64,000 bases of DNA from Escherichia coli (lineage in GTDB: Bacteria > Pseudomonadota > Gammaproteobacteria > Enterobacterales > Enterobacteriaceae), in NCBI RefSeq assembly GCF_003018255.1, contig NZ_CP027440.1, one strand, 5' to 3'. Shown in pieces: positions 4,840 through 64,000 of this stretch. The stretch's first letter is position 1. The number at the start of each line of letters is the position of its first letter. Under the pieces are notes generated by a model. It did no database searches. It saw nothing but the letters and a program-made list of their open reading frames with translations, and was not told the origin of the DNA. Both the position numbers and the translations under genes were made by a program.

Positions 4840-4843
4840 TTTG

Positions 4844-6067: not shown

Positions 6068-6077
6068 AGCCTGCTCC

Positions 6078-9644: not shown

Positions 9645-9650
9645 CTGCCA

Positions 9651-10793: not shown

Positions 10794-11164
10794 ATCTCTG
10801 TGGATAACAAATAATTAACGGTGAAAAACAGGTTGCAACAGCAACGAACGGCATCTTAATAATCAACCCAATGAATACAAACAAAGAATAAATAGTATTT
10901 ATTAATGATTACGATAAGGTCAGAGACTACACAGAAGCGCCACAATGCCTCTTGTCGATTTAAGGCGACCGGACAAGGCTCCTTCTTAATATATTCATAA
11001 ATTAAATATCATTCACAATAAAAACAAAAAAACTCAAACATATTATTTAAATCAATGTTCATTTTCACACCGATGAAAATACTATCTCATTTATCTTTTA
11101 TGCCTATATAATCCACCGCATTATTGTCATTTTATTTTGGATATCCAATTTTTTCGTGGTGTAT

Positions 11165-41143: not shown

Positions 41144-41803
41144 ATGGCTGTTATTCAAGATATCATCGCTGCGCTCTGGCAACACGACTTTGCCGCGCTG
41201 GCGGACCCTCATATTGTTAGCGTTGTTTACTTTGTTATGTTTGCCACGCTGTTTTTAGAAAACGGCTTGCTGCCCGCCTCATTTTTGCCAGGCGACAGCT
41301 TGTTGATACTGGCAGGCGCATTGATTGCCCAGGGGGTTATGGATTTTCTGCCTACGATTGCGATTCTGACCGCCGCAGCAAGTCTGGGCTGCTGGCTAAG
41401 TTATATTCAGGGGCGCTGGTTAGGGAATACCAAAACGGTGAAAGGCTGGCTGGCACAGCTTCCTGCTAAATATCACCAGCGCGCCACCTGCATGTTTGAC
41501 CGCCACGGTCTGCTGGCGCTGCTGGCTGGACGTTTTCTTGCATTTGTCCGTACGCTGCTGCCAACCATGGCGGGAATTTCCGGTCTGCCAAACCGCCGCT
41601 TCCAGTTTTTCAACTGGTTAAGCGGATTGCTGTGGGTCAGCGTGGTAACCAGTTTCGGCTATGCCTTAAGTATGATTCCGTTCGTTAAACGCCATGAAGA
41701 TCAGGTAATGACGTTCCTGATGATCCTGCCAATTGCCTTGTTAACCGCTGGCTTGTTGGGCACGCTGTTTGTGGTGATTAAAAAAAAATACTGTAACGCC
41801 TGA
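41144..41803 (+). CDS. yghB: DedA-family inner membrane protein, 219 aa
   Basis: Length and position. Confidence 0.92.
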
Positions 41804-41814
41804 CGATTTTCCCC

Positions 41815-41848
41815 GTTCCCGGTTGCTGTACCGGGAACGTATTTAATT
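41815..41848 (+). terminator. Hairpin downstream of yghB
   Basis: Stem gttcccgg...ccgggaac followed by gtatttaatt. Confidence 0.45.
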
Positions 41849-42799
41849 CCCCTGCATCGCCCGCATTCTTGCCGCATCTTCCCCCGGCGTCACACCGAAG
41901 TAACGTTTAAACTCACGGCTAAATTGCGATGCGCTTTCATAGCCGACGCGCATCGCCGCCGCGCTGGCCTTCATGCCGTCGTGGATGATCATCATCCGCG
42001 CCTTATGCAGACGGTAATTCTTCAAATACTGCAACGGCGAGGTGCTGGTGACAGACTTAAAATTATGGTGGAACGCCGATACGCTCATGTTGGCTTCTGC
42101 CGCCAGTTGCTCGACGCTCAGGTTTTCGGTGTATTTATTCTCAATCCGTTTCAGCACGCGACTAATCAGGCTGAAGTGAGTCTGGCGGCTGACCAGTGCC
42201 AGTAACGCGCCGCCGCAAGGTCCGGTCAGCACGTAGTACAGAATTTCGCGGATGATCTGTTTGCCGAGAATACGCGCATCCAGCGGTCGCTCCATCACAT
42301 CCAGTAACCGCTCTGCCGCGCATAAAATCTCTTCTGATAACGTGGCGGAGTTAATACCGCTGGCTGCCATTGACGGCTGAAAATGTTCATCTTCGCCAAT
42401 GTCCATCAACAGTTCCTGTAACTGCAAAATATCGACATTGAGACGCAACCCTGCCAGCGGCACCTCTGACGTGGCATAGGTTTCGCACTCAAACGGCAAC
42501 GGCACCGTCAGCAGGAGATATTCATTAGCGTCATAACGAAACACGCGTTCATTGATATAACCGATTTTATGTCCGGAAAAGAGAATTATGATGCCAGGCT
42601 CGTACATCACCGGTGTGCGTGCGAAAGGCGTCTCGCCATACAACAAACGCACATCGGGCAACAGCTCTGACAAACTATTTTCTTTATTTTTCAGTTTATT
42701 AACTTTATCCGCCAGCAAGCGGCAAATCTCTTCACGTTTCATATCGCGTAATTTCTTAGGAATAATGCGGCAATTTGATTGTGCGCAATTTTGTAGCAT
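41843..42799 (-). CDS. yqhC: AraC-family transcriptional activator, 318 aa
   Basis: Track ORF trimmed to [13 protein letters not shown]...; C-terminal AraC HTH. Confidence 0.9.
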
Positions 42800-42935
42800 T
42801 TCTCCAGCACTCTGGAGAAATAGGCAAGACATTGGCAGAAATGAGCATTGAGAGGTACGGCGCTGGCGACCACAATGAAAAACATCAGGCAGACCGATCT
42901 CTGCCCTCATATTGACCCAGCAAAGGGAGCAAGTA
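42800..42935. promoter_or_regulatory. Divergent yqhC / yqhD-dkgA control region
   Basis: Intergenic interval between divergent starts; YqhC control of yqhD is established K-12 biology. Confidence 0.4.
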
Positions 42936-44099
42936 ATGAACAACTTTAATCTGCACACCCCAACCCGCATTCTGTTTGGTAAAGGCGCAATCGCTGGTTT
43001 ACGCGAACAAATTCCTCACGATGCTCGCGTATTGATTACCTACGGCGGCGGCAGCGTGAAAAAAACCGGCGTTCTCGATCAAGTTCTGGATACCCTGAAA
43101 GGCATGGACGTGCTGGAATTTGGCGGTATTGAACCAAACCCGGCTTATGAAACGCTGATGAACGCCGTGAAACTGGTTCGCGAACAAAAAGTGACTTTTC
43201 TGCTGGCGGTTGGCGGCGGTTCTGTACTGGACGGCACCAAATTTATCGCCGCAGCGGCTAACTATCCGGAAAATATCGATCCGTGGCACATTCTGCAAAC
43301 GGGCGGCAAAGAGATTAAAAGCGCCATCCCGATGGGCTGTGTGCTGACGCTGCCAGCAACCGGTTCAGAATCCAACGCAGGCGCGGTGATCTCCCGTAAA
43401 ACCACAGGCGACAAGCAGGCGTTCCATTCTGCCCATGTTCAGCCCGTATTTGCCGTGCTCGATCCGGTTTATACCTACACCCTGCCGTCGCGTCAGGTGG
43501 CTAACGGCGTAGTGGACGCCTTTGTACACACCGTGGAACAGTATGTTACCAAACCGGTTGATGCCAAAATTCAGGACCGTTTCGCAGAAGGCATTTTGCT
43601 GACGCTGATCGAAGATGGTCCGAAAGCCCTGAAAGAGCCAGAAAACTACGATGTGCGCGCCAACGTCATGTGGGCGGCGACTCAGGCGCTGAACGGTTTG
43701 ATCGGCGCTGGCGTACCGCAGGACTGGGCAACGCATATGCTGGGCCACGAACTGACTGCGATGCACGGTCTGGATCACGCGCAAACACTGGCTATCGTCC
43801 TGCCTGCACTGTGGAATGAAAAACGCGATACCAAGCGCGCTAAGCTGCTGCAATATGCTGAACGCGTCTGGAACATCACTGAAGGTTCAGACGATGAGCG
43901 TATTGACGCCGCGATTGCCGCAACCCGCAATTTCTTTGAGCAATTAGGCGTGCCGACCCACCTCTCCGACTACGGTCTGGACGGCAGCTCCATCCCGGCT
44001 TTGCTGAAAAAACTGGAAGAGCACGGCATGACCCAACTGGGCGAAAATCATGACATTACGCTGGATGTCAGCCGCCGTATATACGAAGCCGCCCGCTAA
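42936..44099 (+). CDS. yqhD: NADPH-dependent aldehyde reductase (iron-containing alcohol dehydrogenase family), 387 aa
   Basis: Trimmed to [17 protein letters not shown]... Confidence 0.95.
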
Positions 44100-44203
44100 G
44101 CTTTTTACGCCTCAAACTTTCGTTTTCGGGCATTTCGTCCAGACTTAAGTTCACAACACCTCACCGGAGCCTGCTCCGGTGAGTTCATATAAAGGAGGAA
44201 CGT

Positions 44204-45031
44204 ATGGCTAATCCAACCGTTATTAAGCTACAGGATGGCAATGTCATGCCCCAGCTGGGACTGGGCGTCTGGCAAGCAAGTAATGAGGAAGTAATCACCG
44301 CCATTCAAAAAGCGTTAGAAGTGGGTTATCGCTCGATTGATACCGCCGCGGCCTACAAGAACGAAGAAGGTGTCGGCAAAGCCCTGAAAAATGCCTCAGT
44401 CAACAGAGAAGAGCTGTTCATCACCACTAAGCTGTGGAACGACGACCACAAGCGCCCCCGCGAAGCCCTGCTCGACAGCCTGAAAAAACTCCAGCTTGAT
44501 TATATCGACCTCTATTTAATGCACTGGCCCGTTCCCGCTATCGACCATTATGTCGAAGCATGGAAAGGCATGATCGAATTGCAAAAAGAGGGATTAATCA
44601 AAAGCATCGGCGTGTGCAACTTCCAGATCCATCACCTGCAACGCCTGATTGATGAAACTGGCGTGACGCCTGTTATTAATCAGATCGAACTTCACCCGCT
44701 GATGCAACAACGCCAGCTACATGCCTGGAACGCGACACACAAAATCCAGACCGAATCCTGGAGTCCATTAGCGCAAGGTGGGAAAGGTGTTTTCGATCAG
44801 AAAGTCATTCGCGATCTGGCAGATAAATACGGCAAAACACCTGCGCAGATTGTTATCCGCTGGCATCTGGATAGCGGCCTGGTGGTGATCCCAAAATCGG
44901 TCACACCTTCACGCATTGTCGAAAACTTTGATGTCTGGGATTTCCGTCTCGACAAAGACGAACTTGGCGAAATTGCAAAACTCGATCAGGGCAAGCGTCT
45001 CGGCCCCGATCCTGACCAGTTCGGCGGCTAA
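44204..45031 (+). CDS. dkgA: 2,5-diketo-D-gluconate / methylglyoxal reductase (aldo-keto reductase), 275 aa
   Basis: Length and position after yqhD. Confidence 0.95.
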   Translation: MANPTVIKLQDGNVMPQLGLGVWQASNEEVITAIQKALEVGYRSIDTAAAYKNEEGVGKALKNASVNREELFITTKLWNDDHKRPREALLDSLKKLQLDYIDLYLMHWPVPAIDHYVEAWKGMIELQKEGLIKSIGVCNFQIHHLQRLIDETGVTPVINQIELHPLMQQRQLHAWNATHKIQTESWSPLAQGGKGVFDQKVIRDLADKYGKTPAQIVIRWHLDSGLVVIPKSVTPSRIVENFDVWDFRLDKDELGEIAKLDQGKRLGPDPDQFGG

Positions 45032-45043
45032 CGTGCAAATTCT

Positions 45044-45080
45044 CCCGGTGGCGGTAATGTTCCGCTACCGGACTTTTCAG
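45044..45080 (+). terminator. Hairpin downstream of dkgA
   Basis: Stem ccggtggcgg...ccgctaccgg followed by acttttcag. Confidence 0.45.
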
Positions 45081-45230
45081 AAATCATTTATTCCCCTCGC
45101 GTCCTGCCCATTGTTACTCTTCCTTGTTCAGGAATGCCAAATATAAGGACATCATCATGCAGAGCCGGAAGCTCTTAAAGGAACAACTCATCTACACCCG
45201 GGATAAACGCAACGGAGAGGTGAAAAACAG

Positions 45231-46157
45231 ATGAAAATAATACTTCTGTTTTTAGCAGCCCTGGCAAGTTTTACCGTACACGCGCAGCCTCCTTCACAGA
45301 CCGTAGAACAAACAGTCCGGCAGATTTATCAGAACTATAAATCAGATGCCAGTACGCCTTATTTTGGTGAAACCGGAGAGCGAGCGATAACTTCTGCGCG
45401 TATTCAACAGGCGCTTACCCTGAACGACAATCTTACGCTGCCGGGCAATATTGGCTGGCTGGATTATGATCCGGTTTGTGATTGTCAGGATTTTGGCGAT
45501 CTGGTGTTAGAAAGCGTAGCGATAACCCAACCTGACGCCGATCATGCCGATGCCGTTGTGCGCTTTCGTATCTTTAAAGACGATAAAGAAAAGACCACGC
45601 AGACACTGAAAATGGTGGCGGAAAATGGTCGTTGGGTCATTGACGATATTGTCAGCAATCATGGCAGCGTCTTACAAGCAGTTAATAGCGAGAATGAAAA
45701 AACGCTGGCCGCTATAGCTTCGTTGCAAAAAGAACAGCCGGAAGCCTTTGTTGCCGAACTCTTTGAACATATTGCTGATTATAGCTGGCCGTGGACGTGG
45801 GTGGTTTCCGACTCTTACCGCCAGGCGGTCAATGCCTTCTATAAAACCACCTTCAAGACTACCAACAATCCCGATGAAGATATGCGAATAGAACGGCAAT
45901 TTATTTACGACAATCCGATCTGTTTTGGCGAAGAGTCGCTATTTTCACGCGTTGATGAAATTCGAGTCCTGGAGAAAACCGCCGATTCCGCCCGCATTCA
46001 TGTTCGTTTTACGCTGACCAATGGCAACAATGAAGAGCAAGAACTGGTTTTACAGCGGCGCGAAGGTAAGTGGGAAATCGCTGATTTTATCCGCCCGAAT
46101 AGCGGTAGCCTACTTAAGCAGATTGAGGCAAAAACCGCCGCCAGATTAAAGCAATGA
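45231..46157 (+). CDS. yqhG: Periplasmic protein YqhG (signal peptide), 308 aa
   Basis: Length, N-terminal signal peptide, position. Confidence 0.88.
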   Translation: MKIILLFLAALASFTVHAQPPSQTVEQTVRQIYQNYKSDASTPYFGETGERAITSARIQQALTLNDNLTLPGNIGWLDYDPVCDCQDFGDLVLESVAITQPDADHADAVVRFRIFKDDKEKTTQTLKMVAENGRWVIDDIVSNHGSVLQAVNSENEKTLAAIASLQKEQPEAFVAELFEHIADYSWPWTWVVSDSYRQAVNAFYKTTFKTTNNPDEDMRIERQFIYDNPICFGEESLFSRVDEIRVLEKTADSARIHVRFTLTNGNNEEQELVLQRREGKWEIADFIRPNSGSLLKQIEAKTAARLKQ

Positions 46158-46207
46158 GCTGAGTTAAATAACAATTAGCCGGAACAATAAATAAAAGGGA
46201 ACACTAT

Positions 46208-46465
46208 ATGAAAACGATTTTCACCGTGGGAGCTGTTGTTCTGGCAACCTGCTTGCTCAGTGGCTGCGTCAATGAGCAAAAGGTCAATCAGCTGGCGAGC
46301 AATGTGCAAACATTAAATGCCAAAATCGCCCGGCTTGAGCAGGATATGAAAGCATTACGCCCACAAATCTATGCTGCCAAATCCGACGCTAACAGAGCCA
46401 ATACGCGTCTTGATGCTCAGGACTATTTTGATTGCCTGCGCTGCTTGCGTATGTACGCAGAATGA
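46208..46465 (+). CDS. yqhH: Lipoprotein YqhH (Lpp-like), 85 aa
   Basis: Lipobox LLSGC; length and position. Confidence 0.88.
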
Positions 46466-46469
46466 TAAA

Positions 46470-46508
46470 AAAATTCCCGGCAGCATTCTGTTACCGGGGA
46501 TATTTTTT
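46470..46508. terminator. Hairpin with T-run between yqhH and ygiQ
   Basis: Stem cccggcag...taccgggg followed by atatttttt. Confidence 0.5.
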
Positions 46509-48726
46509 AACGTCCAACCGCCGCTTTAGGGCGTTTCTTCGCACCAGCATTCTGCAGGCGAGATTGCGTAGACGACGCTTTTTTTGCCGTAGCAGGCGTC
46601 TGACGCTGGGTCGCCATCGGCGTATGTTTAGTCAACGCCGGACGGGTATTGCGGTTCTGGCGACGAGCCTCACGCATCTCTTCAATGGTTGGCGCAGGCA
46701 CTAAGCAATCGCGACGGCTGCCAATCAGATGCTTTTTGCCCATCGCTTCCAGCGCCTGGCGGATTAACGGCCAGTTTGCCGGATCGTGGTAACGCAACAA
46801 CGCTTTATGCAGGCGACGCTGCTTGTCGCCCTTCGGTACAAAGACGTCTTCACTTTTATAACCAATCTTCGCCAGCGGGTTTTTGCCGGTGTAATACATA
46901 GTGGTCGAGTTAGCCAGCGGCGACGGGTAGAAGTTCTGTACCTGGTCGAGGCGGAAGCGGTGCTTTTTCAGCCACAGCGCCAGATTCACCATATCTTCAT
47001 CGCGCGTACCCGGGTGCGCGGAGATGAAATACGGGATCAGATACTGTTCTTTACCTGCCTGTTTCGAGTAAGTATCGAACAGCTCTTTAAAGCGGTCATA
47101 GCTGCCCATGCCCGGCTTCATCATCTTCGATAACGGCCCTTCTTCGGTATGTTCCGGGGCAATCTTCAGATAACCGCCAACGTGATGGGTCGCCAGCTCT
47201 TTGATATAGCGCGGATCTTCTACGGCGATGTCATAACGCACACCAGAGGCAATCAGGATCTTTTTAATGCCTTTCAGATCGCGCGCACGGCGATAGAGGT
47301 TAATCGTCGGTTCGTGGTTAGTGTCCATATGCGGACAAATATCCGGATAAACGCACGACAAACGACGGCAGGTTTGCTCAGCGCGTGGCGATTTGCAACG
47401 CAACATATACATGTTGGCAGTAGGCCCACCGAGATCGGAAATCACACCCGTAAAACCTGGAACAGTGTCGCGGATCGCTTCGATCTCATTAATAATCGAA
47501 TCTTCGGAACGGCTCTGAATAATGCGCCCTTCGTGCTCGGTAATAGAACAGAAAGAGCAGCCGCCAAAGCAGCCACGCATAATGTTGACCGAGAAACGAA
47601 TCATTTCGTAAGCCGGAATTCGGGCATTACCGTAAGCCGGATGCGGCACGCGCTTGTACGGCAGCGCAAAGACGCTATCCATCTCTTCGGTAGAAAGCGG
47701 AATAGCAGGCGGGTTGATCCATACATAGCGGTCGCCATGTTTTTGCATCAATGCGCGGGCGCAGCCTGGGTTAGTTTCGTGGTGAAGAATGCGCGAAGCA
47801 TGGGCGTACAGCACTTTATCGCCCTTCACTTTCTCGAAAGAAGGCAGCAACACGTAGGTTTTTTCCCACGGTTTCGGGCGCGGCGGCTGCACGGTTACGG
47901 CTTTCGCTTCCTGCTTTTTCGGCGCAACAGGTTTGTTATCCGCGCACGGCAGATCTTCGCCATACGGATGCGGGATCGGGTCGATTTTCCCAGGAGTATC
48001 AAGACGGGTGGAATCCACGCCGCTCCAGCCTGGCAACGCCTCTTTTACGATAATCGCGGTATTACGCACATCGCGGATTTCACTAATCGGCTCGCCCATC
48101 GCCAGACGATGCGCCACTTCCACCAGCGGACGCTCACCGTTACCGAACATCAGCATGTCGGCTTTCGAATCCACCAGCACGGAACGGCGCACGGTATCGG
48201 ACCAGTAATCATAATGCGCGGTACGGCGCAGACTTGCCTCAATACCGCCGAGGATCACCGGTACATCTTTCCACGCCTCTTTACAACGCTGGGTATAAAC
48301 CAGTGTGGCGCGATCCGGTCGCTTACCCGCGACGTTATCCGGCGTGTAGGCATCGTCATGACGTAAACGGCGATCGGCGGTATAGCGGTTGATCATCGAG
48401 TCCATGTTGCCAGCAGTAACACCGAAAAACAGATTCGGTTTACCCAGACGCATAAAGTCGTCTTTGCTGCTCCAGTCCGGTTGGGCAATGATCCCGACAC
48501 GAAAGCCCTGCGCTTCCAGCATACGACCGCAAATCGCCATCCCGAAGCTTGGGTGATCGACATACGCGTCGCCAGTAACCAAAATGATGTCGCAGCTATC
48601 CCAGCCAAGTTGATCCATCTCTTCACGAGACATCGGCAAAAACGGTGCCGGTCCAAAACAGGCGGCCCAGTACTGCGGCCAGGAGAACAGGTCGCGATCC
48701 GGTTGGATCAGGGAGATAGAGCTCAT
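46507..48726 (-). CDS. ygiQ: Radical SAM superfamily protein, 739 aa
   Basis: CxxxCxxC motif (CFGGCSFC); length matches. Confidence 0.92.
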
Positions 48727-48807
48727 TTTGCTTCCAGAAATGATAAAAAAATAATCAAAGGCCGGGGATTATAAGCCGGAACGAAAGAGAAATCGAAAGG
48801 TATTCCA

Positions 48808-55941: not shown

Positions 55942-56334
55942 TTACGGATTTACTTTGCGGATCTGTTTGACGTCAATTTCAACAGAGTTCCAGTCTTTAT
56001 CGACTTCACCCTGAATCTCAACTGTATCTTTCGGCGTCACCGTCACGCCGTTCCAGCGTTTGTGGTCGATATCAACATTGATAGTACCGCTGGCATCTTT
56101 GAACACGTAGAGATCGTCAGAGATGCGTTCAACGATATTGCCGCGCAGGGTTACCCAGGTGTCGTCACGCAGGGATTTTGCGCTTTCTACGGTCGTTACG
56201 CTGCCGTTCGGCCCCTGGAATCCTCCGGCCTGACTTTGCGTTGCCGATGGGCCAGAAAAACCGCCCTGCTCTGCTGCCATCACCGGTGCGCTGCACAGGG
56301 CCATTACTGCGATTACTGCTGCGAATTTTTTCAT
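55942..56334 (-). CDS. ygiW: OB-fold periplasmic stress protein (BOF family), 130 aa
   Basis: Trimmed to MKKFAAVIAVMALCSAPVMA... Confidence 0.9.
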   Translation of the reverse strand: MKKFAAVIAVMALCSAPVMAAEQGGFSGPSATQSQAGGFQGPNGSVTTVESAKSLRDDTWVTLRGNIVERISDDLYVFKDASGTINVDIDHKRWNGVTVTPKDTVEIQGEVDKDWNSVEIDVKQIRKVNP

Positions 56335-56485
56335 GTTTATTACTCCCTTTAATGTCTGTTTCCGAGCATTTAACAAGATAGTCCTTAACAACTTCTTAAG
56401 GGAAAAAAATAAAATTTAATGCTGTACAGAGCGCGTTACAACACGGTTTACTGGCAGCAAATACGGTTATCGCAGGGATGAAAAA

Positions 56486-57145
56486 ATGCGAATTTTACTG
56501 ATAGAAGATGACATGCTGATTGGCGACGGCATCAAAACGGGCCTTAGTAAAATGGGTTTTAGCATCGACTGGTTTACACAAGGTCGTCAGGGAAAAGAGG
56601 CGCTATATAGCGCGCCTTATGATGCGGTGATCCTGGATTTAACCTTACCAGGCATGGATGGTCGCGATATTTTGCGCGAATGGCGAGAAAAAGGTCAGCG
56701 TGAGCCGGTACTGATCCTGACCGCGCGCGATGCGCTGGCGGAACGTGTAGAAGGGCTGCGTCTGGGAGCTGACGATTATCTGTGTAAACCTTTTGCGTTG
56801 ATAGAAGTCGCCGCCAGGCTGGAAGCTCTGATGCGCCGAACCAACGGCCAGGCCAGCAACGAGCTGCGCCACGGCAACGTCATGCTCGACCCCGGCAAAC
56901 GTATCGCCACGCTGGCTGGCGAACCCTTAACGCTGAAACCAAAAGAATTTGCCCTGCTGGAATTACTGATGCGTAACGCTGGTCGGGTACTGCCGCGCAA
57001 ACTGATTGAAGAGAAACTGTATACCTGGGACGAAGAGGTCACCAGTAATGCCGTTGAAGTGCATGTGCATCATCTGCGACGCAAACTCGGCAGTGATTTT
57101 ATTCGTACCGTTCATGGTATTGGCTACACATTAGGTGAGAAATGA
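56486..57145 (+). CDS. qseB: Two-component response regulator (OmpR family), 219 aa
   Basis: Receiver domain plus winged-helix output; stop overlaps qseC start (ATGA). Confidence 0.95.
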
Positions 57146-58491
57146 AATTTACCCAACGTCTTAGTCTGCGAGTCAGGCTGACGCTAATCTTTTTAATTCT
57201 GGCCTCAGTGACCTGGCTGCTTTCCAGCTTTGTCGCCTGGAAACAAACAACGGATAACGTCGATGAGTTGTTCGACACCCAACTGATGCTGTTTGCCAAA
57301 CGGTTAAGTACGCTCGATCTCAACGAAATCAACGCGGCAGATCGCATGGCACAGACGCCAAATAAATTAAAACACGGTCATGTTGATGACGATGCGCTGA
57401 CCTTTGCCATCTTTACCCACGACGGCAGAATGGTCCTTAACGATGGCGATAACGGAGAAGATATTCCCTATAGCTATCAACGGGAAGGTTTTGCTAACGG
57501 GCAACTGGTCGGTGAAGACGATCCCTGGCGTTTTGTCTGGATGACCTCACCTGATGGCAAATATCGCATCGTTGTTGGTCAGGAATGGGAATACCGCGAA
57601 GACATGGCGCTGGCGATTGTTGCCGGGCAATTGATCCCGTGGCTTGTCGCACTGCCGATTATGTTAATCATCATGATGGTACTACTGGGTCGTGAACTCG
57701 CGCCGCTGAACAAACTGGCGCTGGCACTACGTATGCGTGACCCTGACTCGGAAAAACCACTAAACGCGACGGGCGTACCCAGCGAAGTGCGTCCACTGGT
57801 TGAGTCGTTGAATCAACTGTTCGCCCGCACACATGCGATGATGGTTCGTGAACGACGCTTTACCTCCGACGCAGCTCACGAACTTCGTAGCCCGTTAACG
57901 GCGCTGAAAGTGCAAACCGAAGTTGCGCAGCTCTCTGACGATGATCCGCAGGCGCGGAAAAAAGCGCTGCTTCAATTACATTCCGGAATCGATCGTGCTA
58001 CTCGTCTGGTTGATCAACTGCTCACGCTATCGCGGCTGGACTCACTGGATAACCTTCAGGACGTCGCGGAGATCCCGCTTGAAGATCTCCTGCAATCGTC
58101 GGTGATGGATATTTACCACACGGCGCAGCAGGCGAAAATTGACGTGCGACTGACACTCAAAGCCAACGGCATCAAACGCACCGGACAACCGCTATTGCTA
58201 AGTTTGTTGGTGCGAAATTTGCTGGATAACGCCGTGCGCTACAGTCCACAAGGTAGCGTGGTAGACGTCACGCTGAATGCCGATAATTTCATCGTGAGGG
58301 ATAACGGCCCCGGTGTGACACCAGAGGCATTGGCGCGAATTGGCGAACGCTTCTATCGCCCACCCGGACAAACCGCTACCGGCAGTGGACTTGGGCTATC
58401 GATTGTCCAGCGAATCGCCAAGCTGCATGACATGAATGTTGAATTTGGGAATGCGGAACAAGGTGGATTTGAGGCGAAGGTAAGCTGGTAA
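57142..58491 (+). CDS. qseC: Sensor histidine kinase, 449 aa
   Basis: H-box ([12 protein letters not shown]) and ATPase motifs; length matches. Confidence 0.95.
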
Positions 58492-58499
58492 CTTCTCTG

Positions 58500-58536
58500 T
58501 CTATGAGAGCCGTTAAAACGACTCTCATAGACTTTA
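58500..58536. terminator. Convergent terminator hairpin between qseC and ygiZ
   Basis: Perfect 10-bp stem tctatgagag / ctctcataga followed by tttact. Confidence 0.6.
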
Positions 58537-58869
58537 CTAATAGCAAAATATAAACCGTCCCCAAAAAAGCCACCAACCACAACCCAGACAAATAACGAGC
58601 GAGAATACATATAGCCAAAACTCGAACATTTCCCGCATAAAGAGTTTTCTTAAGATAAGAATAATAAGTGGTGTCAGAAGAAAAAATGCTGCAATCATTG
58701 CTTGCAATATACGATCTTCGCCTGAAACAGAAGGTATACTGCAAATATTGTCTCCCGACTCAAGCATCCAGTCATACTTATTGAAAGCAAAAAAAGAATC
58801 TATTAACCAATAAGTAAGCATTATATATAATAGTGCTTCAAATATTGATAGTAGTTGTTTTTTTAACAT
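58537..58869 (-). CDS. ygiZ: Small inner-membrane protein (three predicted TM helices), 110 aa; candidate immunity protein
   Basis: Length and position match K-12 ygiZ; start lies 6 bp after the stop of the upstream SLT-like gene; AT-rich. Confidence 0.85.
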   Translation of the reverse strand: MLKKQLLSIFEALLYIMLTYWLIDSFFAFNKYDWMLESGDNICSIPSVSGEDRILQAMIAAFFLLTPLIILILRKLFMREMFEFWLYVFSLVICLGCGWWLFWGRFIFCY

Positions 58870-58875
58870 ATCTGA

Positions 58876-59586
58876 TTACTCATTAATCAATTTTTTGATA
58901 TGTTCTCTAATCTCTAACAACCTCATACCATAAGAGATGAATTTATAATCATCTGTATCACGCGCAGGCAAATTATTAATTAAACAAATAAAAAAGCCCA
59001 AATCTCGTTCAACACCACGATTATATCTAATACCAGCCATAATATACTGCTCATTCGTCATATACAGTGTTGCCGAAGAGGGATAATCAAAAAGGACAAG
59101 ATCTCTTAAATAAGTAGCAGCAATTTGAAAGGTAAAATCATCCTCCATTAGGCATGTCGCTAACTCTAACTGATTTCTGGTAGTTAATTCTGAAGGGTCT
59201 AGACCTAGAGTAATCGCTGCGGTTCGTATTTGTATACCCATTGAGCCAAATGATGTTTTATTTTCAGGCATATCTAACAATCCCATCATTCTTTTTGTTT
59301 CATATATCTGAAACTTATAATTTTCAGGCATACCTCCTGACTCAATCCAGGCCACGCCGCCCAGTAACTCTGGACGAATTCCAGCGGCGTATGCATGTTT
59401 AATTATTTTGTCTCTATTATATTGTACATATGCATCTTTATAAGCATTTAAATAATATACTCCTGAACGGCGACGCGAATCATTTTTTCCTAACTTCCAG
59501 AGTAAAACGTCCATTTCATCCCATTTACGGAACTTCGCTTGTGGAATTGTACAATATCTATTTTTTATAGTGAGATCGCTTTTCAT
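58876..59586 (-). CDS. Lysozyme-like / SLT-domain protein, about 236 aa; putative Hcp-associated type VI effector
   Basis: Motifs in order: catalytic-type WIESGG, then GSMGIQI, then YNRG; ATG at 59586 lies 2 nt after the hcp stop with an AAGGA ribosome-binding site inside the hcp 3' end; track start (TTG, 59613) rejected. Confidence 0.55.
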   Translation of the reverse strand: MKSDLTIKNRYCTIPQAKFRKWDEMDVLLWKLGKNDSRRRSGVYYLNAYKDAYVQYNRDKIIKHAYAAGIRPELLGGVAWIESGGMPENYKFQIYETKRMMGLLDMPENKTSFGSMGIQIRTAAITLGLDPSELTTRNQLELATCLMEDDFTFQIAATYLRDLVLFDYPSSATLYMTNEQYIMAGIRYNRGVERDLGFFICLINNLPARDTDDYKFISYGMRLLEIREHIKKLINE

Positions 59587-59588
59587 AT

Positions 59589-60068
59589 TTAAAAAATCCT
59601 TTCTTCCCAACAACTATATGATTCCGTACTCGCGATATGGTGCTTCCATGTTATATTTTTATAATTAAGAACAATGACCTCTTCCGGCTGATTACCCGCA
59701 TGTGTAATTGAGTGTGGATAACATGTCAGAATATTCGATAAATGTGCTCCTTGCAATTCAATTGTGTAAAACCTTTCAATACAACCGCCAGAATTAACTC
59801 TATAAAAATTAAATACAGCTGATAACTCTTCATTTTCAGAAAGAGCGGCATTTAATAAAGGGGAGGATTTATCTATTGGCTTGTAAAATTTTATGGGGTG
59901 ATGCACTACATTATACTCTCGACTTAAAGAATGGTCGAACTGTAAAACAAAAATTTCATCCACATGATTTATTTGATATTTATTACCAATAGATGCATAC
60001 GAACCACAACCCTCAGAGATCAAACCTTGTATTTTCCCTTTAATTGATAAGTATATGATATTTGACAT
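59589..60068 (-). CDS. hcp: Type VI secretion tube protein Hcp (Hcp1 family), 159 aa, orphan copy
   Basis: Conserved Hcp blocks (H-P-F-K-ID-SSP-L, NITW, C-terminal WEER); no other type VI genes in the window. Confidence 0.85.
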   Translation of the reverse strand: MSNIIYLSIKGKIQGLISEGCGSYASIGNKYQINHVDEIFVLQFDHSLSREYNVVHHPIKFYKPIDKSSPLLNAALSENEELSAVFNFYRVNSGGCIERFYTIELQGAHLSNILTCYPHSITHAGNQPEEVIVLNYKNITWKHHIASTESYSCWEERIF

Positions 60069-60216
60069 ATATATTCTCCATAATCATTTTTTCCGAAAAA
60101 CTCCTGTATCATTTGCATAATACATCTCTCCTGTGGGAGCTTATGGGAAGTTGATTTAAGTATTGTCATTTTCAGAAAATATTTATCCCGCATCGGTGAA
60201 TCAGAGAAAGATCAGA

Positions 60217-60263
60217 CTTTTGCTAAATTCGCAAAAGACTTTGCACATTTTGCTAATTTCACC
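60217..60263 (+). promoter_or_regulatory. mdaB upstream element: 7-bp inverted repeat plus marbox-like sequence
   Basis: Palindrome cttttgc-N7-gcaaaag, a direct repeat of ttttgctaa(a)ttc, and tttGCACattttgctaattt resembling the MarA/SoxS/Rob box; a -10-like tactat lies about 20 bp downstream. Confidence 0.35.
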
Positions 60264-60317
60264 GTACCGCTCTGTGACGTACTATAGTCGGCAAACGTCT
60301 CACCTTGAGGTTAAAAA

Positions 60318-60899
60318 ATGAGCAACATCCTGATTATCAACGGCGCGAAAAAATTCGCCCACTCCAATGGTCAACTGAACGACACCCTGACCGAAGTCGC
60401 GGATGGCACACTGCGCGACCTCGGGCATGATGTCCGCATTGTTCGCGCCGACAGCGACTACGATGTCAAAGCGGAAGTACAAAACTTTCTCTGGGCTGAT
60501 GTGGTGATCTGGCAGATGCCTGGCTGGTGGATGGGCGCGCCGTGGACAGTGAAAAAATATATTGATGATGTATTCACCGAAGGTCACGGGACTCTGTATG
60601 CCAGCGATGGTCGTACCCGCAAAGATCCATCAAAAAAATACGGTTCCGGCGGCCTGGTACAGGGCAAAAAATATATGCTTTCTCTGACCTGGAACGCACC
60701 AATGGAAGCCTTCACCGAAAAAGATCAGTTCTTCCACGGCGTTGGTGTTGACGGTGTGTACCTGCCGTTCCATAAAGCAAACCAGTTCCTTGGCATGGAA
60801 CCGCTGCCGACATTTATCGCTAATGACGTGATAAAAATGCCTGATGTTCCCCGCTATACTGAAGAATATCGCAAGCATCTTGTGGAAATTTTTGGTTAA
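60318..60899 (+). CDS. mdaB: NADPH:quinone oxidoreductase MdaB, 193 aa
   Basis: Length and sequence recognition. Confidence 0.95.
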   Translation: MSNILIINGAKKFAHSNGQLNDTLTEVADGTLRDLGHDVRIVRADSDYDVKAEVQNFLWADVVIWQMPGWWMGAPWTVKKYIDDVFTEGHGTLYASDGRTRKDPSKKYGSGGLVQGKKYMLSLTWNAPMEAFTEKDQFFHGVGVDGVYLPFHKANQFLGMEPLPTFIANDVIKMPDVPRYTEEYRKHLVEIFG

Positions 60900-60929
60900 C
60901 TAGAGCTCTGGCTTTAGAAGGAGTTAACC

Positions 60930-61244
60930 ATGATTACAGTAATCGCAGAAATCCGTACTCGTCCTGGTCAACATCACCGTCAGGCAGTGTTGGATCAGTT
61001 TGCTAAAATCGTTCCAACCGTACTGAAAGAAGAAGGTTGCCACGGCTATGCGCCAATGGTGGATTGCGCTGCTGGCGTGAGTTTCCAGTCTATGGCACCG
61101 GATTCTATCGTGATGATTGAGCAGTGGGAAAGCATCGCGCATCTTGAAGCGCATCTGCAAACCCCGCACATGAAAGCATATAGCGAAGCCGTAAAAGGTG
61201 ACGTGCTGGAGATGAATATTCGTATCCTGCAGCCGGGGCTTTGA
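60930..61244 (+). CDS. ygiN: Quinol monooxygenase (ActVA-Orf6/ABM family), 104 aa
   Basis: Length and position after mdaB. Confidence 0.93.
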   Translation: MITVIAEIRTRPGQHHRQAVLDQFAKIVPTVLKEEGCHGYAPMVDCAAGVSFQSMAPDSIVMIEQWESIAHLEAHLQTPHMKAYSEAVKGDVLEMNIRILQPGL

Positions 61245-61288
61245 CATTTCTAAAAAGAGGCCGGTGCTGCTACCGGTCTCAGCCCAGA

Positions 61289-62176
61289 TTAGCCATTCTT
61301 TCTTCCCGTTTTCAGTCCTCGATGGAAATCGTTAATTCGCTTAATGGTTTTAACCGCACGCTGCGGCACTGCGGAAGCTACCGACCAGACAATCATTTCC
61401 AGACACAACAATACCGTACCATGTAGCGGCGTTTTCCCTTTTTCATCCCCGCGCGGAACATGAATCACGATACTGGCGTCTTTGCTAAAACGTGAATCCA
61501 GCGCGTTTGTCAGCAAAATAACAGGGATCCCTAGCCGCCTCGCCTCACGAAGCGTTGTCAGCCCTTCCCGGTGCGCTGATTTTTGCGCCATCATGATCAG
61601 AACATCGCCACGTTGAAGCGCGATCAGTTGCTCGGCAAGGCCAATACCCGTACGGTTTAGTGCCGTGGCAGGCAAACCTATGCGGTTGAATAGTCGTGCG
61701 GTATAGTCCGCCAGAATACCCGAAGCGCCAATGCCAAAAATTGCGACTTGCCGTGCCTGCACCAACAACGCTACAGCTTGCGCAAGCGCGTGGCGGTTTT
61801 CAGGCTCTGACAGGACATTACAGGTATACAAATGCCCTTCAAGAACAAAGTCGATTGCGGTGTTAACATCGCTCGTCAAGTTACTCACCGTCGTAGACAT
61901 CTTTTCGCTGGAACTAAGGGCTGGACCAAGCCACTGTTCCAGAGTGCGTTTCAGATCACGCAGCCCGGCAAACCCCAGGGCCTGTATAGCCCTGATAACT
62001 GTGGCATCGGAAGTGTTCAACGTGGCCGCAATTTCCATCGCCGTTTGCTCGAGTACCACTTCACGATGCTCATTAATGTAGCTGGCGACAACTCTTAACC
62101 CAGGCGTTAACTGACTCGCGCGAGTGCGAAAACGCTCACCAAAAATATCAACCCGCACTTTATCTTTCTGGATCAT
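61289..62176 (-). CDS. RpiR/MurR-family regulator (HTH plus SIS domain), 295 aa
   Basis: N-terminal HTH region and C-terminal SIS-like region; start overlaps stop of the upstream binding-protein gene (ATGA). Confidence 0.75.
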   Translation of the reverse strand: MIQKDKVRVDIFGERFRTRASQLTPGLRVVASYINEHREVVLEQTAMEIAATLNTSDATVIRAIQALGFAGLRDLKRTLEQWLGPALSSSEKMSTTVSNLTSDVNTAIDFVLEGHLYTCNVLSEPENRHALAQAVALLVQARQVAIFGIGASGILADYTARLFNRIGLPATALNRTGIGLAEQLIALQRGDVLIMMAQKSAHREGLTTLREARRLGIPVILLTNALDSRFSKDASIVIHVPRGDEKGKTPLHGTVLLCLEMIVWSVASAVPQRAVKTIKRINDFHRGLKTGRKNG

Positions 62177-63120
62177 TTAGCCTCCGGTAGAGGTCGCCCT
62201 GCAATTTGTGATTGTATCTGCGCAGCCATCAGCCCCAGAGATGCAAAGGAGTTAGAAATTGCCTCTTCACGAGAAATCAGCACATAACGCCCGGAACGAC
62301 AGGCAGTCAGAAACTGACACCATCCCGGCATGACTTTTTCCATTGCTGCCAGCTCATCCTGAGGTTTACCACCGGTGTCACCGCGCCAGGTTGCAAAAAC
62401 AAAATCGGCATCCAGTTCAGGTAAACGCTCCGCGCTCACATCCATTCGCCCACCTTCAGGAATGCTCTCAATCAGCGGCGGAAAACGAAAACCCGCATCG
62501 CGTAATACCCGCCCCAGCGAATGATAGCTATGCATCACATTAATTTTTCCCTGGTTTGCCTGAATCACCGATACCGTTATTTTTTGGCTGTCCAGCGTCG
62601 CCTTCAGCGCATTGATTTGTGCCTGATAGCGGCGTTCAAGTATCGCCAGCTGCGACTGCGTTCCTGTAAGTCCTGCCAGCTTGCGATAGATTTCTGGCGC
62701 ACCCCCTTTGAGATGATCAATGCTCACCGTGGGCGCAATTTTTTCAAGTTGTTCAATGGGCGTATTACGGGTCGGTTCTGTGATGATCAGGTCAGGCTTT
62801 GCCGCCACAATCGCTTCAATATCAATATCAGCGGTACCAATAAAGGCGATCGATGAATTATCAAAGTCGACACCTGTCAATAACGCGCCAGATCGAATGA
62901 AATGGCTACCGTCAGGCCGAGTTCGCCCGTGGCTGGCGACAGGAGGTACACCGAGCTCAATCAGAGGAATAGTGATATCAAGATCGTGTAAAGAGACAAT
63001 TCTCTTTGGATGAGCAGGAACAGTGACTTTGCGCCCTAAATCATCAGTAAATACCTGAACAGGTTCTGTTGCACGGGAAAAAAATGACAACAGTATCAGC
63101 AGAGAAAAAAATAAACGCAT
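62173..63120 (-). CDS. ABC-transporter periplasmic substrate-binding protein (siderophore/cobalamin/heme class), about 315 aa
   Basis: Signal peptide (MRLFFSLLILLSFFSRA) then FecB/BtuF-like sequence; track ORF extends 21 codons further upstream. Confidence 0.7.
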   Translation of the reverse strand: MRLFFSLLILLSFFSRATEPVQVFTDDLGRKVTVPAHPKRIVSLHDLDITIPLIELGVPPVASHGRTRPDGSHFIRSGALLTGVDFDNSSIAFIGTADIDIEAIVAAKPDLIITEPTRNTPIEQLEKIAPTVSIDHLKGGAPEIYRKLAGLTGTQSQLAILERRYQAQINALKATLDSQKITVSVIQANQGKINVMHSYHSLGRVLRDAGFRFPPLIESIPEGGRMDVSAERLPELDADFVFATWRGDTGGKPQDELAAMEKVMPGWCQFLTACRSGRYVLISREEAISNSFASLGLMAAQIQSQIAGRPLPEAK

Positions 63121-63130
63121 ATAACTCCCG

Positions 63131-64000
63131 TTAAAAACTGTTCCTGCGCTGCCAGAGCAGTAGCAAAAAAAATGGTCCACCAATCAGTGAGATAATGATT
63201 CCGGCAGGCAGTTGCAAAGGCAAAAAAGCCAAACGACCAATGCTATCCGCCAGAATAACTAACAACGCCCCCGATACCGCGCTCCCCAGCAGTAATGTCG
63301 TCTGCCCGCCACGTAGAATAAAACGTGATATATGGGGTGCTATCAATCCGACAAAACCGATGTTACCAACACACGAAACGCAGACGGCTGTCAGGATTAT
63401 TGGTGCGGCGACACGTAACAACGCCAGACGAGAACTATTCACCCCTAACCCGGTTGCAACCTGATGACCAAGCAGAGCGATATCCGCCGTCCTGGCGGTG
63501 AACAGCAATAAAAGAGCGGCTGGCAACATCCAACAGGCTGAAATACCGACTAACATCCAGTTAGCTGCATGCAGGCTTCCCGATAACCACATCAATGCAG
63601 TTTGTACATCTCGAACATCTGCAGTGGTCATAAATACACCGATACCGGCGGCGAAAAACCAGGAAACACCAATACCAATCAGAACAAATCGCGGGCGGGA
63701 AATATCGCGCGCACAAAAAATCACGATTAAAGCCACCAACAAGCCACCAGCAAGACCAGCCACTGGACGCCAGAACATTCCCAGCATTGGAAACTGGAAA
63801 ATCAGCCACAGCACCGCCACGCTACATCCTTCTTTGACGCCGATTAAACCAGGATCGGCAAGGCCGTTACGCGCAATGGATTGCATCGCGGCCCCCGCCA
63901 TACCTAACATGGCTCCGCATAGCAATGCCATGATGACTCTCGGCAAGCGAATATCCTGCACAATATAACGTGCGTCTGTGCTTACGTTTTCTGGAGCAAA
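63131..64000 (-). CDS. FecCD-family ABC permease, N-terminus beyond the window edge
   Basis: Polytopic membrane ORF; coding frame continues to position 64000. Confidence 0.7.
   Translation of the reverse strand, partial: FAPENVSTDARYIVQDIRLPRVIMALLCGAMLGMAGAAMQSIARNGLADPGLIGVKEGCSVAVLWLIFQFPMLGMFWRPVAGLAGGLLVALIVIFCARDISRPRFVLIGIGVSWFFAAGIGVFMTTADVRDVQTALMWLSGSLHAANWMLVGISACWMLPAALLLLFTARTADIALLGHQVATGLGVNSSRLALLRVAAPIILTAVCVSCVGNIGFVGLIAPHISRFILRGGQTTLLLGSAVSGALLVILADSIGRLAFLPLQLPAGIIISLIGGPFFLLLLWQRRNSF

Follow-up and report, generated by a model that had tools for sequence, protein, structure and literature searches.

The 64,000-nucleotide stretch of Escherichia coli DNA analysed here (RefSeq assembly GCF_003018255.1, contig NZ_CP027440.1; hereafter the window) carries, between qseC and mdaB, ygiZ, an uncharacterised gene that we call X and an orphan hcp, in DNA that is conspicuously AT-rich. 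Is this stretch an insertion, how long has it been there, and what might its three genes do together?

Composition and limits of the island

The interval 58492-60207 had a GC content of 34.3%, compared with a mean of 51.7% (sd 2.4, minimum 45.3%) in the other 1716-bp windows of the 64 kb (z = -7.2), and was the lowest-GC stretch within the window. GC ran at 0.30-0.40 from ~58500 to 60250 and at 0.50-0.55 on both sides. Third-position GC was 0.31 in ygiZ, 0.28 in X and 0.26 in hcp versus 0.55 in qseC and 0.56 in mdaB; overall, GC3 was 26-31% for the cassette genes and 49-57% for comparison genes. The AT-richness relative to qseC and mdaB that the initial annotation had noticed was confirmed by both measures.

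Alignment to sites that lack the island placed its left end at 58492, the first base past the qseC stop codon, and its right end somewhere in 60202-60214 (Table 1). The island is real, and it is wider than the span first proposed for it, 58537-60110. The perfect hairpin that had been read as one of its boundaries, at ~58500-58531, exists as 58499-58532. It was also recovered in the inverted-repeat search, has a folding energy of -20.9 kcal/mol (z = -4.8 versus shuffles) and is probably a terminator. However, because it is missing from the empty sites, it lies inside the inserted DNA and does not bound it. It is missing in a Citrobacter werkmanii copy of the island as well, and another hairpin takes its place in a Pseudocitrobacter copy. 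The right-hand limit, which had been put at a conserved mdaB promoter, held: the island abuts a small ancestral hairpin and the conserved block AAAGACTTTGCACATTTTGCTAATTTCACC, which stood directly after the qseC stop codon in every empty site examined, and this hairpin-block segment scored terminator-like.

Table 1. Positions in the window of the island, its genes and its flanks
Feature	Coordinates	Strand	Evidence or remark
qseC, left flank	57142..58491	+	ordinary composition
inserted AT-rich island, ~1.72 kb: three genes, its own probable terminator and an upstream region	58492..60214		missing from empty sites; low GC
hairpin between convergent qseC and ygiZ	58499..58532		11-bp stem and 3 inner pairs
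ygiZ, 110-aa DUF2645 inner-membrane protein, proposed immunity protein	58537..58869	-	PF10840 6.3e-11
X, 236 aa, uncharacterised, lysozyme-like/lytic-transglycosylase-like predicted fold	58876..59586	-	start according to RefSeq and homologue alignment
orphan hcp, 159 aa, T6SS tube protein, proposed carrier of X	59589..60068	-	TIGR03344 2.2e-58; PF05638 8e-20
hcp upstream (promoter) region	60069..60214	-	60141-60214 homologous to K-12
ancestral small hairpin (60217-60237) and conserved block AAAGACTTTGCACATTTTGCTAATTTCACC 5' of mdaB (60234-60263)	60217..60263		right flank, outside the insert
mdaB, right flank	60318..60899	+	ordinary composition

No integrase or transposase gene occurred within 6 kb of the island, and the repeat search found no direct or terminal inverted repeats bracketing it, in agreement with the earlier report of neither an integrase nor a direct-repeat boundary. 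The insertion point is not at a tRNA, and the island has the marks neither of an integrase- or tRNA-associated genomic island nor of an IS or transposon. An Rfam search of 56000-62000 gave no match.

Distribution and age of the insertion

Of 80 species representatives from the Enterobacteriaceae, 75 had an empty site, in which qseC and mdaB are only 106-116 bp apart; they included E. albertii, Salmonella, most Citrobacter, Klebsiella and Enterobacter. Complete E. coli genomes (n = 5426) were divided at this locus: 825, O157:H7 among them, had the empty site, 1261 had the full hcp-X-ygiZ cassette and 3026 had ygiZ alone, as in K-12. In K-12 itself, homology to the window restarts at 60141 with 94.7% identity, and the segment 60141-60214 is common to K-12-type genomes, where it lies upstream of ygiZ. 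We regard the K-12 arrangement as a partly deleted island, because ygiZ belongs to the cassette. The deletion, with the same 140-bp filler, is common to K-12-type E. coli and E. whittamii. Neither tblastn nor short-word blastn found significant remnants of hcp or X in this filler, in which a weak resemblance of DNYKWI to DDYKFI (E = 0.3) was seen.

Diverged AT-rich copies (GC3 0.25-0.41) fill the identical gap in C. werkmanii and in one Pseudocitrobacter genome, with synonymous differences of 0.66-0.83, saturated like those of the flanking qseC (0.63-0.70). The hcp-X-DUF2645 unit was also found at unrelated locations: in a Chania chromosome beside an integrase and IS, in a Pectobacterium chromosome between pagP and eamA, on a Serratia conjugative plasmid, on a Rahnella megaplasmid (where X identity was only 39.6%) and at a polB-linked locus. 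An apparent E. coli plasmid match, MG591698, proved to be a chromosomal segment (parE-qseBC-mqsRA) and was rejected as a case of plasmid carriage. Beyond composition, the empty sites and these scattered locations confirm that the island is a genuine insertion, and they support the horizontal acquisition proposed for it in the initial annotation.

The contrast of 34% with 52% GC, the empty site in many E. coli and most relatives, and the related cassettes on conjugative plasmids would all fit a recent gain from a low-GC donor in the lineage of this strain, with the AT-richness reflecting too little time to ameliorate. We nevertheless consider a recent gain improbable. Between the window and other lineages of E. 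coli, full-length copies diverge by ~2.7%, the derived K-12-type deletion with its filler is also in E. whittamii, and the same-site copies in C. werkmanii and Pseudocitrobacter are saturated at synonymous sites yet still AT-rich; a closely related donor sequence was not found. Judged from these comparisons, the acquisition is old and not recent in this strain. The locus may have undergone either one ancient insertion followed by many losses or several gains in the same gap.

A candidate Hcp-linked effector and its membrane partner

The genes of the cassette are ordered hcp-X-ygiZ, with the hcp stop codon 2 nt ahead of the X start codon and a spacer of 6 nt before ygiZ. As a mobile unit, the cassette kept this order constant, with an Hcp of 159 aa, an X protein of 234-246 aa and a DUF2645-type protein of 109-113 aa, and hcp was immediately upstream of X in E. 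coli, Chania, Pectobacterium, Serratia, Rahnella, C. werkmanii, Pseudocitrobacter and the locus L014. In-frame hcp-X fusions were rare (P0002 and L011); they seem to have arisen by deletion, and one contains a stop codon. The dN/dS ratio was 0.05-0.14 for hcp, 0.06-0.09 for X and 0.13-0.33 for ygiZ, and reached 0.42 between two orphan ygiZ copies. The fastest-diverging gene was ygiZ, at 35-42% identity where X holds 56-62%.

The orphan Hcp scored well above the curated cut-offs of TIGR03344 (196.9 bits versus 58.9) and PF05638 (71.9 versus 23.5). In the one genome checked for secretion machinery, that of strain KC-Dl-1, which is 100% identical to the window over a 2.1-kb query, we found two complete T6SS clusters, linked to metV and aspV. 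The 159-aa Hcp of the aspV-linked system was 50% identical to the orphan Hcp over the full length. The other two of the host's three cluster Hcps were only 28-31% identical to it, which we count against a role of the cassette in effector delivery, as we do the occurrence of the cassette in a K-12-like backbone. The aspV-linked cluster has an hcp-vgrG-DUF2169-PAAR-like operon, organised like hcp2B-vgrG2-xmtU/V, and neither host cluster contains a copy of X. The Hcp2B paper (PMC5874247) was set aside as a description of the present locus, since its hcp2B-vgrG2-xmtU/V operon lies inside a T6SS cluster. Upstream of the orphan hcp, a sigma-70 consensus scan found no strong promoter and fewer sites than in shuffled sequence. 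The central BglJ-RcsB motif wwTTCykA occurs there at 60172-60179 on the minus strand, and in K-12 BglJ, when expressed constitutively, has been shown to activate the ygiZ promoter jointly with RcsB.

X fell below every threshold of Pfam and NCBIfam, with no Pfam hit at E <= 0.1; a longer TTG-initiated reading frame from 59613 was unsupported. Its predicted structure is a lysozyme-like alpha-helical fold that most closely resembles MltE, in an AF2 model of moderate quality (pLDDT 75.9; residues 1-27 and 85-113 poorly predicted). Lytic transglycosylases of the GH23/SLT type have one catalytic Glu at a helix end together with S/G...Q and YN.G motifs. Across the X family no variation was seen at E82, G85, S112, G114 and Q119, and very little at Y188, N189 and G191. 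In non-significant HMM matches, E82 aligned to the Glu of the MltE motif IESGGNP and to Glu250 of Tse3; a broad X profile matched MltE and Tse3 among PDB sequences at non-significant E values of about 0.3-0.5, and a profile of 24 close homologues gave a weak match to PHIKZ034 alone (E = 0.36). PF01464 weakly matched only 8 of 44 distant relatives (best 8e-6), and P0148 reached 22.6 bits versus a cut-off of 21.3; X itself did not reach the gathering score. An hhalign comparison of the X family with the host's own Slt70 was uninformative.

The N-terminus of X is hydrophilic, and the protein has neither a signal peptide nor a lipobox. Its domain was found C-terminal to PAAR (P0039), to RHS (P0166) and in at least eight eCIS_core proteins, some of which also have an OmpA peptidoglycan-binding domain. 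In this it appears to behave like a polymorphic toxin, fused to dedicated delivery domains. The linkage to hcp, these delivery-domain fusions and the accompanying DUF2645 gene lend support to the original naming of the middle gene as an effector. X also matched phrog_11932, a PHROG family of unassigned function, at 3.7e-28. In holin-endolysin cassettes the holin gene lies upstream of the endolysin gene, and the holin has a charged cytoplasmic C-terminal tail. Here no phage genes are nearby, and the membrane protein is encoded downstream and ends right after helix 3. A phage lysis cassette was dropped because tblastn of X against 50,697 phage records gave no match and a search of a viral structure library gave no significant one.

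YgiZ scored 43.2 bits against PF10840 (gathering cut-off 25), and its AF2 model (pLDDT 80.7) consists of helices 2-27, 50-77 and 81-109. A basic N-terminus, an acidic loop at 30-52 and a basic second loop are kept in nearly all partners. The loop residue Cys43 is conserved in all aligned sequences but one, and the C-terminal Cys109 is invariant. A DUF2645-type three-helix gene followed X in every Hcp-linked cassette examined and came directly after the PAAR-X gene; the eCIS-X fusion examined was followed by a CIS tube gene instead. From this gene order, the DUF2645 gene seems to travel with the toxin domain across delivery modules, as an immunity gene would.

We consider it probable, with clear room for doubt, that the island is a mobile T6SS auxiliary cassette, encoding an Hcp-carried, peptidoglycan-cleaving effector X and its membrane immunity protein YgiZ. 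The cassette would have entered long ago at the gap of a few bases that separates the qseC stop codon from the hairpin before the mdaB promoter, and its tightly coupled genes would be transcribed from the region upstream of hcp. X, having no signal peptide, would travel inside rings of the Hcp that the cassette itself encodes, which shares a subfamily with the tube protein of the aspV-linked T6SS in the host, and would be injected into the periplasm of nearby bacteria. Once there, the lysozyme-like (GH23/SLT-like) domain of X would cut peptidoglycan glycan strands, with invariant Glu82 as the putative catalytic acid. YgiZ, whose short acidic periplasmic loop is probably tied by a disulfide to the C-terminal cysteine, would block X on the periplasmic side of the inner membrane and in this way protect the producing cell and its kin. 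If X is a toxin and YgiZ its immunity protein, ygiZ in K-12 would be a leftover immunity gene, kept as an orphan after the loss of hcp and X in K-12-type strains and E. whittamii. O157:H7 and others have the ancestral empty site.

Other readings of the cassette and its relation to known systems

Immunity to T6SS peptidoglycan hydrolases is provided in the known cases, the Tgi proteins among them, by soluble proteins of the periplasm or by lipoproteins. A polytopic membrane protein in this role is atypical for a cell-wall toxin, and the target of X could instead be membrane-proximal. One such reading has X acting at the membrane surface, on lipid II, nascent lipid-anchored glycan or a glycosyltransferase step and not on the mature wall, which would account for an immunity protein that resides in the inner membrane; we think it unlikely. 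A related idea, which we hold with little confidence, makes DUF2645/YgiZ a new class of polytopic inner-membrane immunity, because X would strike not the mature sacculus but peptidoglycan that is still being made on the outer side of the inner membrane, as lipid II or nascent lipid-anchored glycan. If this idea were true, it would mean a new T6SS killing mode, and K-12 ygiZ would be a built-in resistance against E. coli with the full cassette.

X might also be a housekeeping wall-remodelling enzyme that helps a T6SS to assemble through the cell's own peptidoglycan, with YgiZ as an anchor or regulator. MltE serves this purpose in enteroaggregative E. coli, TagX has been reported in the same role in Acinetobacter, and the nearest fold and the linkage to hcp are both in keeping with it. 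X, however, lacks a signal peptide or lipobox that would take it into the periplasm of its own cell, its domain occurs, in the manner of toxins, fused to delivery modules of the PAAR, Rhs and eCIS kinds, neither host T6SS cluster has a copy, and ygiZ alone is retained in the 3026 genomes, T6SS-free K-12 included, so that we regard a housekeeping role as very improbable. Equally hard to credit is that the cassette in E. coli is a silenced, decaying relic, of which at most ygiZ has been co-opted outside T6SS. The DNA is of the AT-rich kind that H-NS silences, BglJ-RcsB turns on the K-12 ygiZ promoter, hcp and X are lost from most E. coli, and a Citrobacter-like copy carries a stop-bearing hcp-X fusion. 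Yet none of the three genes is disrupted, either in the window or in sampled RefSeq annotations, dN/dS values of 0.05-0.33 denote purifying selection, and gene order and tight spacing are kept across genera.

As a compositional island alone, the locus would be ordinary. If the mobile T6SS cassette that we favour is real, K-12 ygiZ gains a concrete function as an antidote that has outlived its T6SS toxin, a toxin still encoded by roughly one in four complete E. coli genomes. The T6SS repertoire would then grow by an uncharacterised effector family and by DUF2645 as its immunity family, the membrane-embedded immunity being unusual for a cell-wall toxin. The armed, immune-only and naive states of the locus would predict kills among gut E. 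coli lineages, with O157:H7 naive and K-12 immune.

Among known systems, Tse3-Tsi3 (Tge1-Tgi1) of P. aeruginosa and Tge2-Tgi2 of P. protegens are T6SS peptidoglycan glycoside-hydrolase effectors with immunity proteins. The similarity of X to Tse3 was non-significant (E = 0.37-0.44), which leaves X outside the Tge1-3 family, and in contrast to the Tge-Tgi pairs the cassette has a three-helix integral membrane DUF2645 partner and brings its own hcp. The family-1 lytic transglycosylases such as MltE (EmtA) and Slt70 (GH23, SLT PF01464) differ from X, which lacks a Pfam match, a signal peptide and a lipobox and has additional segments at 1-40 and 200-236 and a toxin-type gene context. The Hcp-linked cargo effectors and Hcp-ET of Enterobacteriaceae share with the cassette an orphan hcp outside the main cluster, followed by toxin and immunity genes. 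To our knowledge, the Hcp-ET toxin types (nucleases, lipase and peptidase) do not include the toxin domain of X. In the cassette, unlike in the 'evolved' Hcp toxins of Ma et al. 2017, cited in PMC11148199 and bioRxiv 10.1101/2024.03.05.583533, Hcp and toxin are normally separate proteins. We did not find the cassette in the supplements of PMC11148199, nor is it described in the literature on ygiZ, DUF2645, PF10840, orphan hcp and orphan immunity, searched mostly outside subscription journals.

Orphan T6SS immunity genes, as defined in the review PMC6730261 (citing Kirchberger et al. 2017), sit within T6SS clusters. Like them, ygiZ is kept without its effector, in E. coli and E. whittamii and under some purifying selection, whereas it is a lone chromosomal gene in strains possibly without a T6SS, such as K-12. 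The Acinetobacter baumannii proteins Tse4 and Tae17 are bifunctional T6SS effectors that combine a lytic transglycosylase with a peptidase or amidase (PMC11796386; bioRxiv 10.1101/2021.03.04.433973); Tae17 is modular, has two catalytic activities and needs its cognate delivery protein (PMC11796386). X would resemble both in using a lytic-transglycosylase-type domain for T6SS killing, and it differs from Tae17 in being a single-domain, Hcp-linked protein of 27 kDa.

The AT-rich insert between qseC and mdaB

As a compositional island, the hcp-X-ygiZ stretch, in which X is the middle gene, is ordinary. GC content in 300-bp windows was 0.30-0.40 at about 58500-60250 and 0.50-0.55 in both flanks. 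The segment absent from empty sites (58492-60207) was 34.3% GC (z = -7.2) and was the lowest stretch within the 64-kb window, whose remaining 1716-bp windows had a mean of 51.7% (sd 2.4, minimum 45.3%). GC3 was 0.31 in ygiZ, 0.28 in X and 0.26 in hcp, compared with 0.55-0.56 in qseC and mdaB. These values confirmed the AT-richness relative to the flanks that had been noticed in the initial annotation. Its remark that no integrase or direct-repeat boundary was apparent also held, as the gene content and a repeat search at the island revealed neither an integrase gene nor repeats bracketing the AT-rich stretch. X starts at the ATG given by RefSeq and all homologues; an upstream TTG is not supported as the start.

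A 2.1-kb query across the island was 100% identical to E. coli strain KC-Dl-1. When 5426 complete E. coli genomes were typed with three probes, 1261 carried the complete hcp-X-ygiZ cassette, 3026 had ygiZ only (the K-12-type allele), and 825, O157:H7 among them, had an empty site; about 314 fell outside these probe-defined states, one example being an IS1-associated deletion. In the three-state alignment, the sequence missing from empty sites extended from 58492, immediately past the qseC stop codon, to about 60202-60214. K-12-type genomes retained 58492 to about 58870 (the hairpin and ygiZ) and 60141 onward, with a 140-bp filler in place of hcp and X between the two retained segments. Because empty sites lack the entire interval, the hairpin next to qseC lies inside the insert. 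Thus, the hairpin reported near 58500 exists, but it is not the island boundary that it was proposed to be. Relative to empty sites, both occupied E. coli states had five additional bases, TCAGA (60211-60215), between GAGWAAGA and the ancestral hairpin; the empty-site sequences are GGGTAAGAC (O157) and CGGTAAGAC (E. albertii).

Features of the cassette, its copies and other blocks (window coordinates unless a locus is named)
Feature	Location	Strand	Remarks
ygiZ	58537-58869	minus	Pfam DUF2645
X	58876-59586	minus	236 aa, unannotated
hcp	59589-60068	minus	TIGR03344, 2e-58
Hairpin	58499-58532		-20.9 kcal/mol, z = -4.8
wwTTCykA match	60172-60179	minus	central BglJ-RcsB motif
qseC-site cassette, window	58537-60068
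qseC-site cassette, locus L031	2223-3754
qseC-site cassette, locus L090	2120-3646
Chania cassette			adjoins integrase fragment and IS
Pectobacterium cassette			between pagP and eamA
Serratia cassette			75.6-kb plasmid, close to traI and traX
Rahnella cassette			megaplasmid; X identity only 39.6%
Further cassette locus			between ABC transporter gene and polB
hcp-X fusion, metagenome locus L011	7605-8711
Pesticin-domain and LprI-like genes, Chania locus L005	12287-13314
X relative and partner, Cronobacter locus L103	3950-4919
yghS-yghO cluster	about 3472-13317		KC-Dl-1 record 3087982-3097827
ftsP-ygiQ block	about 41292-48765		record 3052534-3060007
Siderophore block	61289-64000 and beyond		right after ygiN

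Ancestral state, age and spread of the cassette

The mdaB locus was fetched for 80 Enterobacteriaceae species representatives. The qseC-mdaB spacing was 106-116 bp in 75 of them, including E. albertii, Salmonella and most Citrobacter, Klebsiella and Enterobacter, and all short-spacer species had, within a few bases of the qseC stop, a small hairpin together with the conserved block AAAGACTTTGCACATTTTGC. Therefore, the empty site represents the ancestral state and the island was inserted into it, in agreement with the horizontal acquisition suggested earlier. At the same site, E. whittamii had ygiZ alone, with the filler that is also present in K-12. The full cassette was present in Citrobacter werkmanii (76%, 73% and 63% identity to E. 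coli Hcp, X and YgiZ, respectively) and in one Pseudocitrobacter genome (68%, 66% and 44%); the site was empty in P. faecalis. In Escherichia, C. werkmanii and Pseudocitrobacter, the cassette occupies the identical few-base gap that separates the qseC stop from the small hairpin. This shared gap has neither a recombinase nor repeats, and sister species are empty there. The non-coding ends of the cassette vary by genus: C. werkmanii lacks the left hairpin, and the one in Pseudocitrobacter is unlike that of E. coli.

Synonymous differences among the three qseC-site copies were saturated (0.66-0.83), as were those of the flanking qseC (0.63-0.70), while GC3 of the copies was 0.25-0.41 compared with 0.55-0.68 in host genes. 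Synonymous divergence saturated like that of qseC therefore marks the acquisition as old despite the AT-richness, and a recent acquisition is less likely. The AT-richness of these copies looks maintained, and not simply a matter of amelioration still to come. The cassette may have entered in one ancient insertion followed by many replacements by the empty allele, or it may have been gained several times at one favoured gap.

Close relatives of X formed only 34 clusters among 5.8 billion proteins, all from Enterobacterales and all annotated as hypothetical. In every context examined, hcp (159 aa) was followed by X (234-246 aa) and a membrane protein of 109-113 aa. Across the Chania, Pectobacterium, Serratia, Rahnella and polB-linked hosts, cassette GC ranged from 33% to 51%, with about 50% in Chania and on the Serratia plasmid.

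In-frame hcp-X fusions were seen in two Citrobacter-like metagenome contigs (L011 and L012), where the end of hcp is joined to X residue 22 and a stop codon lies earlier in hcp, and in protein P0002, where Hcp residue about 100 is fused to X residue 12. These probably arose by deletion rather than as purpose-built Hcp-toxin fusions. Another protein, P0004 (314 aa, from a 3074-bp ENA contig), has a hydrophobic signal-like N-terminal segment and an unrelated 130-aa region, the remainder being X residues about 45-236 at 99% identity; either the assembly is chimeric, or recombination swapped its T6SS-type N-terminus for a Sec-type one. In Chania multitudinisentens, a pesticin-domain gene lies 3 kb from the cassette with an LprI-like gene after it, in a region that also holds the integrase fragment and IS genes; the pesticin-domain gene encodes another lysozyme-type toxin, and the LprI-like gene is possibly its immunity gene. 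Cronobacter dublinensis IncFIB plasmids encode a 223-aa X relative with 36% identity across residues 22-196, and the next gene encodes a 98-aa three-helix protein that has an acidic loop and no cysteines. An upstream hcp is not annotated there, and the pair may be a more distant version of X-YgiZ.

Protein X, its partner and their proposed function

X had zero matches in Pfam and NCBIfam, and 374 relatives were retrieved when a profile was run against 1.8 billion representative proteins. In many longer proteins the X domain is C-terminal, after PAAR (P0039), RHS repeats (P0166) or, most often, eCIS_core, and two X-bearing eCIS proteins additionally contain an OmpA-type domain, which is of the peptidoglycan-binding type. 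This fusion pattern is the behaviour of polymorphic toxin domains. Across 44 diverse relatives, E82, G85, S112, G114 and Q119 were invariant and R187, Y188, N189 and G191 nearly so, which we take to be reminiscent of the family-1 lytic transglycosylase signatures E-S, GLMQ and AYNAG. Among PDB sequences, the family profile matched MltE and Tse3 best, both non-significantly; these alignments put E82 at the Glu of MltE IESGGNP and at Tse3 Glu250, both catalytic residues. Weak Pfam SLT matches were found in 8 of the 44 relatives. The N-terminus of X is hydrophilic and has no signal peptide.

The AF2 model of YgiZ (pLDDT 80.7) has long helices at residues 2-27, 50-77 and 81-109 and one 22-residue loop. 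All X partners have a basic N-terminus, an acidic loop 1 of about 18-29 residues and a short basic loop 2, and all end in cysteine; most also have a conserved loop cysteine. By the positive-inside rule, we infer that the YgiZ loop and C-terminus are periplasmic, and a disulfide could link the two cysteines there. In a 31%-GC organism, a DUF2645 gene lies directly downstream of a PAAR-X fusion gene, indicating that the small gene tracks the toxin domain rather than the delivery module. This is the decisive point for an immunity role. YgiZ is also the faster-diverging protein, with 35-42% identity in comparisons where X has 56-62%. Its dN/dS of 0.13-0.33 still indicates purifying selection, with 0.42 between the orphan copies of K-12 and E. 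whittamii.

KC-Dl-1 has a complete T6SS adjoining the metV tRNA genes and a second adjoining aspV. The orphan Hcp was only 31% and 28% identical to two of the T6SS-cluster Hcps but 50% identical, along its full length, to a 159-aa Hcp encoded at the aspV cluster's end in this one genome, which places it in the subfamily that the aspV-linked apparatus uses. We propose that hcp-X-ygiZ, whose genes are 2 and 6 nt apart, would be a single operon whose Hcp carries X into the neighbours' periplasm by way of the aspV-type T6SS. There, X would cleave peptidoglycan glycan strands with Glu82, and YgiZ would neutralise it on the periplasmic side of the inner membrane. After loss of hcp and X, ygiZ of K-12-type strains would be an orphan immunity gene, and empty-site strains would be sensitive. 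We consider this scheme as a whole probable: gene linkage, the lysozyme-like fold of X, its conserved residues, the domain fusions and the T6SSs of KC-Dl-1 were observed, and secretion, substrate, immunity and regulation are inferred. In K-12, constitutively expressed BglJ has been shown to activate the ygiZ promoter together with RcsB. The wwTTCykA match lies in the hcp-upstream segment kept by K-12; thus, as a lead only, K-12 ygiZ may be driven from the former upstream control region of the cassette.

The main rival reading, an unlikely one, keeps the toxin-immunity logic and places the target of X at the membrane surface, which would account for a membrane-embedded immunity protein. A decaying relic, a housekeeping role in wall remodelling and a phage-type lysis pair are all less likely. 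In its proposed mode, X-YgiZ would work like Tse3-Tsi3 and Tge2-Tgi2 and X like Hcp-linked cargo effectors, although X is a sequence member of none of these, nor of Pfam SLT, and YgiZ is of a different kind. No description of the cassette was found in full-text literature largely outside subscription journals. The scheme gives the K-12 gene ygiZ a function that can be tested, and the three-state locus (armed, immune, naive) may predict antagonism between E. coli lineages.

Other gene blocks in the window

The siderophore block comprises a MurR/RpiR regulator, an iron-siderophore ABC transporter (binding protein, two FecCD permeases and ATPase) and a TonB-dependent receptor. K-12-type genomes have parE after ygiN instead, and O157:H7 also has the block, a second presence/absence polymorphism at a distance of 1 kb from the island. 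The yghS-yghO cluster is annotated as encoding a serine palmitoyltransferase (spt), acyl carrier protein, fatty acyl-AMP ligase, epimerase, LptF/LptG-like permeases and an LPS biosynthesis protein, and looks like a sphingolipid-type lipid pathway; the second-lowest GC of the window (about 45% near 9600-9950) falls within it. The ftsP-ygiQ block contains a TRAP transporter, an Ldh-family oxidoreductase, a zinc alcohol dehydrogenase, a mannitol dehydrogenase-family gene and a GntR regulator.
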